Below, in pieces: positions 45,883-47,640 of a stretch of 64,000 bases of DNA. Each line of letters opens with the position of its first letter. Positions within the stretch are counted from its first letter, which is position 1. The notes beneath the pieces were generated by a model that was not told where the DNA came from, ran no database searches, and saw only the letters and a program-made list of their open reading frames with translations. Location: the sequence record MF327004; one strand, given 5' to 3'. Origin of the DNA: Shigella phage Sf17. The position numbers and the translations under genes are program-made.

Positions 45883-46239
45883 AACTACCTCCTATATAAA
45901 ATTTTGTATACATTTGAGTATAAAAATAAGCTATAACACCTGACTTGTCAACAGATTTTATAGCTTATTTGGCAGATTTTTTATAAGGCTACTGCCATCC
46001 TTCCGCACCCGACCTGACCTCGCCCAACCTTACCTGACTGAACCACACCCGACCAAACATCACTTAAAAACCCTTTTCAAAGACTCTTAAGTGATGTAAT
46101 CGAATTTTTATGTAGCTCCGATTAACTACCCATACCTAACCCCACCTTGCCACACCGAACCAGACCAAACCCAGCCTCATTAAAAGACCCTTTTAAAGAC
46201 CTTTTAAAAAGGAGCCTCCGAAGAGGCTACCTAGTCAAC
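45883..46239. repeat. structured non-coding region A (C/A-rich tracts plus three hairpins)
   Basis: Shares with region B: 10-bp-stem hairpin CATCACTTAA...TTAAGTGATG, hairpin with conserved loop ttttaatgtagc and 3-prime AACTACCC, AT-stem hairpin TTAAAAG-acccttttaaagac-CTTTTAA, and ACC-rich tracts. Confidence 0.6.
46211..46232 (-). terminator. rho-independent terminator (minus strand) after gene 46240-46680
   Basis: Minus strand AGCCTC-ttcg-GAGGCT followed by CCTTTTT. Confidence 0.55.
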
Positions 46240-46680
46240 TTAGAAAGGTTTTCTACGTTGCTTGTTAATGTTAGCTTTCATGGCAGCTAAATGGTTTTGC
46301 TGTTCAATCAGTCGTGAACGTTCTTGATGACTAAGTACCATAGTGTTCACATTCTCAATCGCTTGAGTGGCTTGTTTTAAAGCACGACCAATCTTACTAG
46401 ACATTTTACGTTTTGCAATAGTTGCTTGATGTTTAGGTTCCACCACACGATAACCAACACCCATTGAAGTGACCAGATAAATCTTCTCTTCTTTAAGAAG
46501 CTTCTCAATAAACTTCTCAAGTCGATTTAGGCGTGTAAGTGCGTAAGCTTTCATTTCATCTTCGTACTTAACAATGTCACCTTGATAAGTCGGCTTCACA
46601 ATACCTAAGAAGGTGTCCATCTCAGAGTGTGATACAGTATCACCGTAACTGAACTTTGCTGCTAATGCTTTTGTATTCAT
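46240..46680 (-). CDS. hypothetical protein (146 aa, basic C-terminus) in repeat-bracketed cassette
   Basis: ORF; no recognisable motif. Confidence 0.5.
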   Translation of the reverse strand: MNTKALAAKFSYGDTVSHSEMDTFLGIVKPTYQGDIVKYEDEMKAYALTRLNRLEKFIEKLLKEEKIYLVTSMGVGYRVVEPKHQATIAKRKMSSKIGRALKQATQAIENVNTMVLSHQERSRLIEQQNHLAAMKANINKQRRKPF

Positions 46681-46682
46681 AA

Positions 46683-47285
46683 TTAAACATTACCTTCTGA
46701 AATAACTTCTACAGAAAAACGACCAAAGCGTGGACGCCAATCACCTACACCACAAAGGTTGCCAGCATTTTCCAGAACCATCAAGAGTTCTTCTTTGGTA
46801 ATTTGTTCTTCATCGAACATCAAACCAAACTCTACAGACCAGTCACGGAAGATTGGACGGTAGCTCATAACTCGTGCTGTGCCAATCTTAACAGACTTCG
46901 CATAGATAAAGTCTTGGTTCTTAGCTAGTTCTTGTGGGTTTGCTGGACAGTTCTTAATAGTCATTGGGAAGACTACATCTGTCAGCATAATGGCTCGGTC
47001 AATTACCTTACCAAGTTTGTTGAGTTTTGCACCAGACTTGATACAAGCCTCAATCATCTCACCGTTCATAACAAAACCTAGTTGCTCGTCGTAGTAACAA
47101 GAGGTTACCAGTTGACTCTCTGCTAAGAGAGCGTAGTCTTCGTCAGTCTTTTTACGTTTACTAGACAGAGACTTGTGATACTTTGTCAGAGGATTTAATG
47201 GGTCTGACAGAGTATCAGCATGGCTCAGGAAAGGACGAGTGCCAGTGATTTTGATATTTAACAGTTTCATAGCATTTAGCTCCAC
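46683..47285 (-). CDS. hypothetical protein (200 aa) in repeat-bracketed cassette
   Basis: ORF; no recognisable motif. Confidence 0.5.
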
Positions 47286-47640
47286 ACTTTAGTTGATTGT
47301 TAAGTTGTTTGTAAAGAACCCTCAACAGAAGACTCTTTAGAAACTTGGTAGATTTTTAACGTGGCTACTACCATCCACCCTTACCTCACTTTACCTAACC
47401 TGACCTTACCAGACCCAACCGGACACTACCCTACCTAGCGAAACCTCATTAAAAGACCCTTTTAAAGACCTTTTAAAAAGGTGAGTCTCATTTTAATGTA
47501 GCTGAGACTAACTACCCTCACCAAACCGGACCAGACCCAACCCAGCCATACCAGACCATACCACACCCAACCGAACCGAACCTTACCGAGCATCACTTAA
47601 AAACCCTCTTAAAAGACTCTTAAGTGATGCTGGTGAGTAC
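47286..47640. repeat. structured non-coding region B (partner of region A, hairpin order swapped)
   Basis: Same element families as region A; the conserved-loop hairpin has a different but still complementary stem (GAGTCTCA/TGAGACTC versus AATCG/CGATT). Confidence 0.6.

Follow-up and report, generated by a model that had tools for sequence, protein, structure and literature searches.

In the genome of Shigella phage Sf17 (record MF327004), two small genes at positions 45883-47640 of the stretch analysed here (64,000 nucleotides, referred to as the window) are bracketed by two structured non-coding regions, A (45883-46239) and B (47286-47640). What are these regions, and do they belong with the genes that they enclose? 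We conclude that the genes and the flanking units are one system, in which the flanks are guide RNAs (vrRNAs) for the protein encoded between them. With a probability of about 93%, it belongs to the SUSP1 clade of type II VIPR (Viral Interference Programmable Repeat) systems. Direct evidence comes from the anatomy of the locus, its strand, the fold of the Vipr protein, covariation in the RNA tails, near-identity to phage SUSP1 and the association of gene and repeat tract across unrelated viruses. The VIPR locus at these positions is already known, through a bioRxiv preprint of June 2026 (10.64898/2026.04.26.720920), and Sf17 adds to it only new guide sequences and two side points, on orphan units and on 5' hairpins. 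Possibly new among these are the intact orphan vrRNA-like units in relatives that lack the vipr gene, including Felix O1, and the hairpin on the 5' side of every repeat tract.

According to the parts of the preprint drawn on here, VIPR is a phage-borne system of RNA-guided DNA silencing made up of a minimal RAMP protein (Vipr), an accessory gene (vap) and flanking vrRNAs, each of which consists of 9-16 YNNGG repeats and a conserved tail that forms a pseudoknot in the SUSP1 clade. In the model phage SUSP1, vrRNAs of ~100 nt were detected in infected cells and co-purify with Vipr. Their NN dinucleotides determine which double-stranded DNA is targeted, one base being skipped per repeat; the guides are reprogrammable, and VIPR represses transcription. 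The natural targets of the SUSP1 clade, found in the E. coli pangenome, lie mostly on a satellite phage, and the preprint's own systems show no self-targeting. The type II Vap is predicted to bind DNA, and the clade is defined by >90% protein identity to SUSP1 Vipr (10.64898/2026.04.26.720920).

An earlier reading made from the letters of the window (hereafter the sequence-only reading) had described A and B as two paired regions with hairpins of several kinds and ACC-rich tracts. The elements that it listed are present: 10-bp stems CATCACTTAA/TTAAGTGATG at 46058-46096 and 47591-47629, AT-stem hairpins with the core ACCCTTTTAAAGAC at 46175-46212 and 47444-47481, and conserved-loop hairpins followed by AACTACCC at 46098-46131 and 47484-47517, whose stems (AATCGAA/TCCGATT vs AGTCTCA/TGAGACT) stay complementary. 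The two hairpin types follow each other in opposite order on the two sides, and two open reading frames (ORFs) lie between the regions, again as it had described. The division into two paired regions has to be refined, however. Two further conserved-loop hairpins are found at 45971-45996 (GGCAG/CTGCC) and 47347-47372 (GGTAG/CTACC), and the regions comprise one unit in four copies, A housing U1 and U2, and B housing U3 and U4. Read on the plus strand, a unit runs from a hairpin with the conserved loop ATTTTTWAYRTRGCT and a variable stem, through an 8-nt box (AACTACCC, ATCCACCC or ATCCTTCC) and an (NNACC)n tract, to a second hairpin with the core ACCCTYTT(N)AAAGAC. On the minus strand the order is a 16-18 bp G·U-rich hairpin, 9-14 GGY-NN pentamers and a tail of ~35-40 nt with hairpin and pseudoknot. 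The four tracts are as follows.

47518..47587, minus strand: guide region of vrRNA U4; 14 GGY-NN pentamers with NN = AA TC TC TG GT AT CT AT TG TG CT CC TT GA; fits the preprint's definition of a vrRNA
47381..47445, minus strand: guide region of vrRNA U3; 13 pentamers, 3 of them degenerate at GGY
46132..46176, minus strand: guide region of vrRNA U2; 9 pentamers with NN = TG TT CT TC GT AA GG TA AT
46005..46054, minus strand: guide region of vrRNA U1; 10 pentamers with NN = CG GT TC CA AA TG GA CA CG GC

The ACC-rich tracts are thus strictly periodic, (NNACC)n, with 10, 9, 13 and 14 GGYNN repeats in U1, U2, U3 and U4, all on the gene strand. This GGY/NN pentamer code is the decisive feature of the locus, and the sequence-only reading had not picked it out. 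Within the 64-kb window a period-5 ACC score of at least 6/10 occurs at these four tracts only, and on one strand only, with a maximum of 3-4 elsewhere, a pattern well outside what chance would produce. The 69 distinct tracts collected from relatives have a pentamer make-up of N N A82% C98% C85% (G85 G98 U82 N N in the minus sense) and contain 8-17 pentamers, with a median of 13. The NN positions are hypervariable even among closely related phages, while the hairpins are constant. Tract and tail together have a predicted length of ~80-105 nt. A repeat search found no regular array of CRISPR (short palindromic repeats, clustered and regularly interspaced) type, the cassette consisting of two small genes only, and Rfam covariance models gave no match at E <=1 on either strand of positions 44000-50000.

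At its 3' end each unit carries a structured tail.

47484..47517, minus strand: 3' tail of vrRNA U4; GGGUAGUU, then hairpin AGUCUCA/UGAGACU, whose loop GCUAC pairs with the upstream GUAG in a pseudoknot
47347..47380, minus strand: 3' tail of vrRNA U3; GGGUGGAU, then hairpin GGUAG/CUACC; pseudoknot GUGG/CCAC
46098..46131, minus strand: 3' tail of vrRNA U2; hairpin AAUCGGA/UUCGAUU, with a G·U pair in the minus sense only; pseudoknot GUAG/CUAC
45971..46004, minus strand: 3' tail of vrRNA U1; GGAAGGAU, then hairpin GGCAG/CUGCC; pseudoknot AAGG/CCUU

The box AACTACCC pairs with the hairpin loop to form the pseudoknot. When aligned, 26 distinct tails fit together without gaps. On a model with a 7-bp hairpin and a pseudoknot in which 5 bp join the 8-nt box to the hairpin loop, 91.7% of the cells pair; in controls with slid partners the figure is 30-38%. 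Both sides have changed at 10 of the 12 tail pairs (for example GUAG/CUAC, GUGG/CCAC and AAGG/CCUU), so that both helices covary, and none of 500 shuffles reached the observed score. The argument of the sequence-only reading, that structure kept under changing sequence speaks for functional RNA or DNA hairpins, is borne out for structured RNA, with real covariation. Its candidate role as a small-RNA locus proves to be the right one, the flanks being vrRNAs.

The 5' end of each unit is formed by a second hairpin, of which there are two types.

47591..47629, minus strand: 5' hairpin of U4, type h2a; 18 bp including 5 G·U in the minus sense
47444..47481, minus strand: 5' hairpin of U3, type h2b
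46175..46212, minus strand: 5' hairpin of U2, type h2b
46058..46096, minus strand: 5' hairpin of U1, type h2a

Evidence points to these elements acting as minus-strand RNA, because the promoter (listed below) reads from the minus strand, the G·U pairs exist in the minus sense only and the genes lie on the same strand. Indeed, this type of hairpin reaches 16-18 bp only through the G·U pairs of the minus sense. The mean folding energy of h2a is -15.8 kcal/mol in the minus sense vs -8.1 in the plus sense (14 variants), and that of h2b is -9.5 vs -3.3 kcal/mol (23 variants). In the U2 tail stem, the plus sense would have an A·C mismatch where the minus sense has G·U, and relatives show A-U, G·U and G-C at this position. 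A consensus search found no plus-strand promoters in the conserved loops, and the minus strand carries all genes between 42 and 53 kb of the window. The elements had earlier been described as they read on the plus strand; their sequences do stand there, but promoter, G·U pairs and gene strand favour the minus strand.

Both cassette genes are read in the same direction as the units.

46683..47270, minus strand: vipr, encoding a 195-aa minimal Cas7/Csm3-like RAMP with a C-terminal G-loop; the product would have 200 aa if translation began at the GTG at 47285 instead
46240..46680, minus strand: vap, a vap1-like accessory gene of 146 aa

Vipr is a small single-RRM RAMP with G-loop and thumb, and its fold is RAMP/Cas7 rather than ToxN/AbiQ. 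The length of 200 aa given before belongs to an ORF that is present, from the GTG at 47285, but the start is most likely the ATG at 47270, giving 195 aa, because homologues start likewise. Vipr is identical to SUSP1 Vipr (contig L013) at 193 of 195 positions, with 99.0% identity to KT454805.2 by tblastn, and Vap is identical to SUSP1 Vap from the same contig at 142 of 146. As the identity of Vipr lies above the 90% by which the preprint delimits the clade, the Sf17 system belongs to the SUSP1 clade. The cassette proteins gave no informative match in Pfam, NCBIfam or PADLOC and matched only families of unknown function in PHROGs. A k-mer search found no distant homologues of the 146-aa Vap, which is linked to the Medea1 and Pseudomonas family by pairwise BLASTP only. 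The region as a whole is 99.6% identical to Shigella phage Sf18 and has matches in 256 phage records, which with few exceptions belong to Felixounavirus and its relatives. Across records of Felixounavirus, Suspvirus and Mooglevirus, Vipr shows 96-100% amino-acid identity vs ~87% in the flanking DNA, and these sequence identities suggest that the cassette may have spread horizontally, and recently, within this group.

The joining of gene and tract into one system is further supported by viruses unrelated to Sf17. An exact (ACCNN)x6 scan of IMG/VR returned >120 stretches, on viral contigs of 28-70% G+C, several of them in arrays of hairpin plus tract. On one unrelated 84-kb contig (L041), clusters of three and four tracts flank a gene pair whose first gene is a Vipr homologue. 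Vipr homologues are likewise followed by tracts in Pseudomonas phage Medea1 and in Gordonia phage Trine, where the tract takes the form (GGCNN)10. The association was examined from both ends. From protein to tract, the back-translated C-terminal motif of Vipr retrieved 38 loci outside Felixounavirus, and in 27 of these sense GGYNN tracts directly adjoin the gene or its partner, ahead of the start codon or behind the stop; antisense tracts occur nowhere in the 38. From tract to protein, a Vipr-family profile was run against the 18 multi-tract loci of the blind (ACCNN)x6 scan. A Vipr homologue was found in 13, always opposite the ACC strand and usually within tens of bases of the tract, at most ~600. 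The association holds in both directions, and genes and tracts therefore form one module.

Two further tract-bearing contigs came up in the course of this work. On a viral contig of GC 0.32 (L114, 10093-14035), each of five (NNACC)n tracts fills a gap separating one sugar-nucleotide or glycosyltransferase gene from the next and is G-rich in the sense of those genes; there is no Vipr-like ORF within the 14.7 kb examined. The other (L100, 56-648) carries seven units of ~85 nt, each combining 8-10 NNACC pentamers with a GC-rich hairpin (CCCACGG...CCGTGGG) that differs in its stem from copy to copy. This array probably belongs to another VIPR array type.

How would such a system act? A vrRNA of 9-14 GGY-NN pentamers with its hairpin/pseudoknot tail of ~35-40 nt would be transcribed from the minus strand, and on the model of the preprint, in the parts drawn on here, its repeat tract would be coated by Vipr subunits. 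The protein would hold the GGY triplets and leave the NN dinucleotides to pair with double-stranded target DNA as NN-x-NN-x (10.64898/2026.04.26.720920). The bound ribonucleoprotein would then repress transcription of rival mobile elements. The window itself contains no self-target: under the one-base-skip rule no site in its 64 kb reaches an NN match of at least 80%, the best reaching 64-78%. The core of U4, the one guide scanned there, has no match in GTDB genomes. A match to the U4 core in JGI metagenomes (L187; U4 was the only guide used) was set aside as chance, having 21 of 28 bases, flanks at chance level and a place in non-coding-looking high-GC DNA. A BLAST search of tail and 5' hairpin against 5,426 complete E. 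coli genomes gave no match; satellite-borne vrRNAs, if present in those genomes, have different tails.

Several points weigh against the VIPR reading. The mechanism rests on a single preprint that is not yet peer-reviewed and that describes a 99%-identical system, Sf17 itself being known from sequence alone. No natural target was found in IMG/VR for the exact 10-dinucleotide cores of the four guides, a scan that lay outside the E. coli pangenome. The covariation of the tails stems from four paralogous tail classes and so from few independent events, and the DNA-binding fold of Vap is weakly supported. Finally, vrRNA-like units are kept in nine of the 27 complete loci from relatives although vipr is missing there, which the simple model leaves unexplained.

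Other candidate roles offered by the sequence-only reading were a site of replication or recombination, or the edges of a mobile cassette. As the main function these do not hold, the flanks being guide RNAs of the protein between them, but each deserves to be weighed. That the repeated regions are boundaries or recombination sites which move the two-gene cassette in and out of phage genomes is suggested by its presence in about half of the Felixounavirus records (116 with Vipr at >=90% identity, 229 with units). The single hybrid unit of Felix O1, made of the U1 tail and the U4 5' hairpin, stands exactly at the cassette site, and the identity of Vipr relative to its flanks would fit recent exchange. 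However, no recombinase or transposase is found by Pfam, NCBIfam or PADLOC, and the larger protein is a RAMP. Recombination sites need neither a GGY/NN code nor a covarying RNA tail, and the same tracts flank vipr homologues at other positions in unrelated viruses. Homologous recombination between direct repeats suffices for gain and loss. We consider the boundary or recombination-site reading improbable. Gain and loss of the cassette probably do proceed through recombination between the repeated units, as a secondary consequence and not as their function. A replication origin, in which a promoter would produce a G-rich transcript forming a stable R-loop on the C-rich template, with the hairpins and the 11-12 bp repeats as iterons, would make sense of the strong promoter upstream and of the extreme G/C strand asymmetry of the tracts. 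It would also suit the place of the locus within a block of replication and nucleotide-metabolism genes, and most intergenic tracts in IMG/VR are, with few exceptions, G-rich in the sense of their neighbours. R-loops have no need of a strict 5-nt register with free NN, though, and an origin fits poorly with a copy number of 1-5, with tracts that are hypervariable between near-identical phages and with tracts that accompany a RAMP gene in unrelated viruses. The cumulative GC skew of the window has its turning points near 42 kb and 53 kb, at the flips of gene orientation, and none at the locus. We hold an origin to be very improbable.

Two alternatives accept an RNA product and assign it another partner. 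TRAP sites consist of 11 G/UAG triplets with 2-3 nt spacers. The 3 + 2 periodicity of the tracts resembles them, and together with the 8-17 repeats per tract and the position of the tract in the transcribed sense strand upstream of genes it could indicate that the GGU-pentamer RNA serves some ring-shaped RNA-binding protein of host or phage as sponge or attenuator, in the way of TRAP or of the CsrB-type sponge RNAs. Yet Pfam gives no match to a TRAP-like family for the two cassette proteins or for the two small ORFs beside them, and a Cas7-like RAMP is the conserved partner. A sponge could do without hypervariability at the NN positions, which fits a guide function that the preprint, in the parts drawn on here, demonstrates by reprogramming (10.64898/2026.04.26.720920); the sponge has as little chance of being right as the origin. 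A type III toxin-antitoxin-like module, in which a repeated antitoxin RNA array accompanies a small RNA-processing toxin, shares with the locus the order of promoter, tandem RNA repeats and small protein gene, as well as carriage by phages and prophages. It is contradicted by the RAMP/Cas7 fold in place of ToxN/AbiQ, by the lack of a PADLOC match, by units with hypervariable cores rather than identical tandem copies and by units that lie downstream of the genes too, which leaves it with hardly any probability at all. The evidence is thus best accommodated by a VIPR system with guide RNAs on both sides of its genes.

Some narrower candidates were tried and rejected. T7-type primase sites (GACC) do not fit a variable base before ACC. 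The E. coli BREX motif GGTAAG would match TTACC, the commonest pentamer, yet by a rough estimate this is no more frequent than local A/T bias predicts. A Rho-utilisation site on plus-strand RNA finds no plus-strand promoter, and the structure favours the minus strand. A G-quadruplex would need neither a strict 5-nt register nor a conserved U. A packaging site or genome end was considered as well: the end stretches of Escherichia phage warpig have no spanning terminal repeat, just a 41-bp repeat_region annotated at the start, and the determined ends of UAB_Phi87 lie at other places in its genome. The warpig record (MN850637.1; L035 / L036) is opened inside the locus, with the vrRNA hairpin at bases 39-93 and the flanking gene at the other end, which suggests that the assembly broke because of the repeated units and not that the genome physically ends there.

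Presence of the cassette does vary among relatives, a comparison that brings up the orphan units. The 27 complete delimited loci divide into 18 with both genes and several units and nine without the genes, which have 1-2 units (L004 3633-3914, which is Felix O1, and L011, L015, L016, L018, L025, L026, L030 and L031). The tract detector, which misses degenerate tracts, found 1-5 tracts per locus. Felix O1 has 282 bp between the two flanking genes, with its one hybrid unit and neither cassette gene. Orphan units keep promoter, 5' hairpin, GGYNN tract and tail between the same two flanking genes. Their GGY conservation is 72% of pentamers vs 78% in vipr-carrying loci, that of the central G is 95% vs 97%, and their NN sequences differ between phages. 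That they are functional is a tentative idea, and one that we rather doubt. As guides, they could use Vipr from a relative or satellite that infects the same cell; as RNA decoys, they could sequester the Vipr of a rival and act as an 'anti-VIPR', analogous to RNA anti-CRISPRs. They may also be relics of deletion between units. The terms 'orphan', 'lacking vipr', 'without vipr' and 'in trans' do not occur in the main text of the preprint (10.64898/2026.04.26.720920), as far as that text was available. Parts of the locus had been annotated before, as 'DR_4' repeats in wV8 and as a 'possible binding site of StbAB' in KhF3. Matches to the locus at 82-90% identity also come from records named Staphylococcus phage SA1 (GU169904) and Campylobacter phage A126, which are probably chimeric or mislabelled.

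The second side point concerns the 5' hairpins, which share an apical GUCUU/AGGGU segment and which, as far as its sections and main-text terms go, the preprint does not mention (10.64898/2026.04.26.720920). In L003, L006 and L021 the apical loop has an insertion of ~22 nt and the stem is kept. The hairpin can also be read as three 11-12 bp direct repeats of TTTTAAAGACC. Because tract and tail already account for ~100 nt, this G·U-rich hairpin may act in spacing or processing, perhaps as an RNase III site, and so keep apart the vrRNAs that are cut from a single transcript. Adjoining the outermost hairpin, positions 47625-47632 read GCTGGTGA, a 7/8 match to the E. coli Chi site (GCTGGTGG) that is kept in Felix O1 and is probably coincidental.

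Signals for the start and end of transcription complete the map of the locus.

47660..47687, minus strand: putative sigma-70-like promoter, TTGACA-16-TATACT, an 11/12 match to consensus, reading into the upstream vrRNA pair and vipr
47286..47315, minus strand: weaker promoter-like site ahead of vipr, TTTACA-18-TAAAGT, a 9/12 match to consensus
46213..46228, minus strand: intrinsic terminator-like hairpin 3' of vap, AGCCTC-TTCG-GAGGCT followed by CCTTTTT
45923..45970, minus strand: long AT-rich hairpin and T-run just downstream of U1, overlapping the promoter of the next gene (TTGACA-17-TATTTT)

The promoter at 47660..47687 is kept in Felix O1 with its single unit. To judge by their sequences, it would drive one transcript from which the vrRNAs are cut, and the hairpin at 45923..45970 is likely to terminate it. 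Between the ligase gene and this promoter, the minus strand also carries a 49-aa hydrophobic ORF (PHROG 22006; window 47693-47842), for which the intergenic gap of just 282 bp in Felix O1 leaves no room.

Taken as a VIPR system, the Sf17 locus would be an inter-virus weapon and not an element of replication or mobility. Per the preprint, in the parts drawn on here, such systems represent a new form of RNA-guided DNA recognition, with a ~20-kDa protein, a ~100-nt guide, a gapped code and no protospacer-adjacent motif, and VIPR may be ancestral to CRISPR effector proteins (10.64898/2026.04.26.720920). All its sequence-level hallmarks (pentamer code, covarying tail, RAMP fold and gene-tract linkage) were recovered here independently from raw DNA, and this recovery from the window corroborates a claim that awaits peer review. 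The relatives without vipr that have intact guide-like RNAs, together with the conserved 5' hairpins, are leads on how guides are made, shared and perhaps countered.

Among known systems, ToxIN-like type III toxin-antitoxin modules differ from the locus, which has a RAMP fold, units with differing cores and units on both sides of the genes. The TRAP sites of the Bacillus trp leader share with it a conserved triplet with a free 2-nt spacer, ~11 repeats and a single-stranded RNA, and differ in the triplet, in the protein fold and in the outcome, which is attenuation of the own operon for TRAP and RNA-guided DNA recognition for VIPR. RNA anti-CRISPRs and solitary CRISPR repeats are formally like the stand-alone guide-like RNAs of vipr-less relatives, which have no cognate protein gene. 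Unlike RNA anti-CRISPRs, however, the orphan units may equally be relics or guides that use Vipr in trans. The backbone of class 1 CRISPR-Cas (Cas7/Csm3/Cmr4) shares the RAMP fold with G-loop, periodic binding of the guide RNA and a guide composed of a variable part and a conserved structured handle, whereas the Sf17 locus has no CRISPR array, Cas1/2, Cas10, Cas5, Cas6, Cas11 or second RRM. The class 1 period is 6 nt and makes no demand on sequence, in contrast to 5 nt with a conserved GGY in VIPR, whose guide is read non-contiguously and which is carried by a virulent phage. The closest counterpart is SUSP1 VIPR itself. Its vrRNAs stand one upstream and three downstream of the genes (in L013 as in the small-RNA sequencing of the preprint's available parts), vs two and two in Sf17, and its NN guides differ, but the proteins are near-identical, and genomic position, gene order, orientation and the build of the vrRNAs (GGY/NN plus a tail of ~40 nt) are the same.

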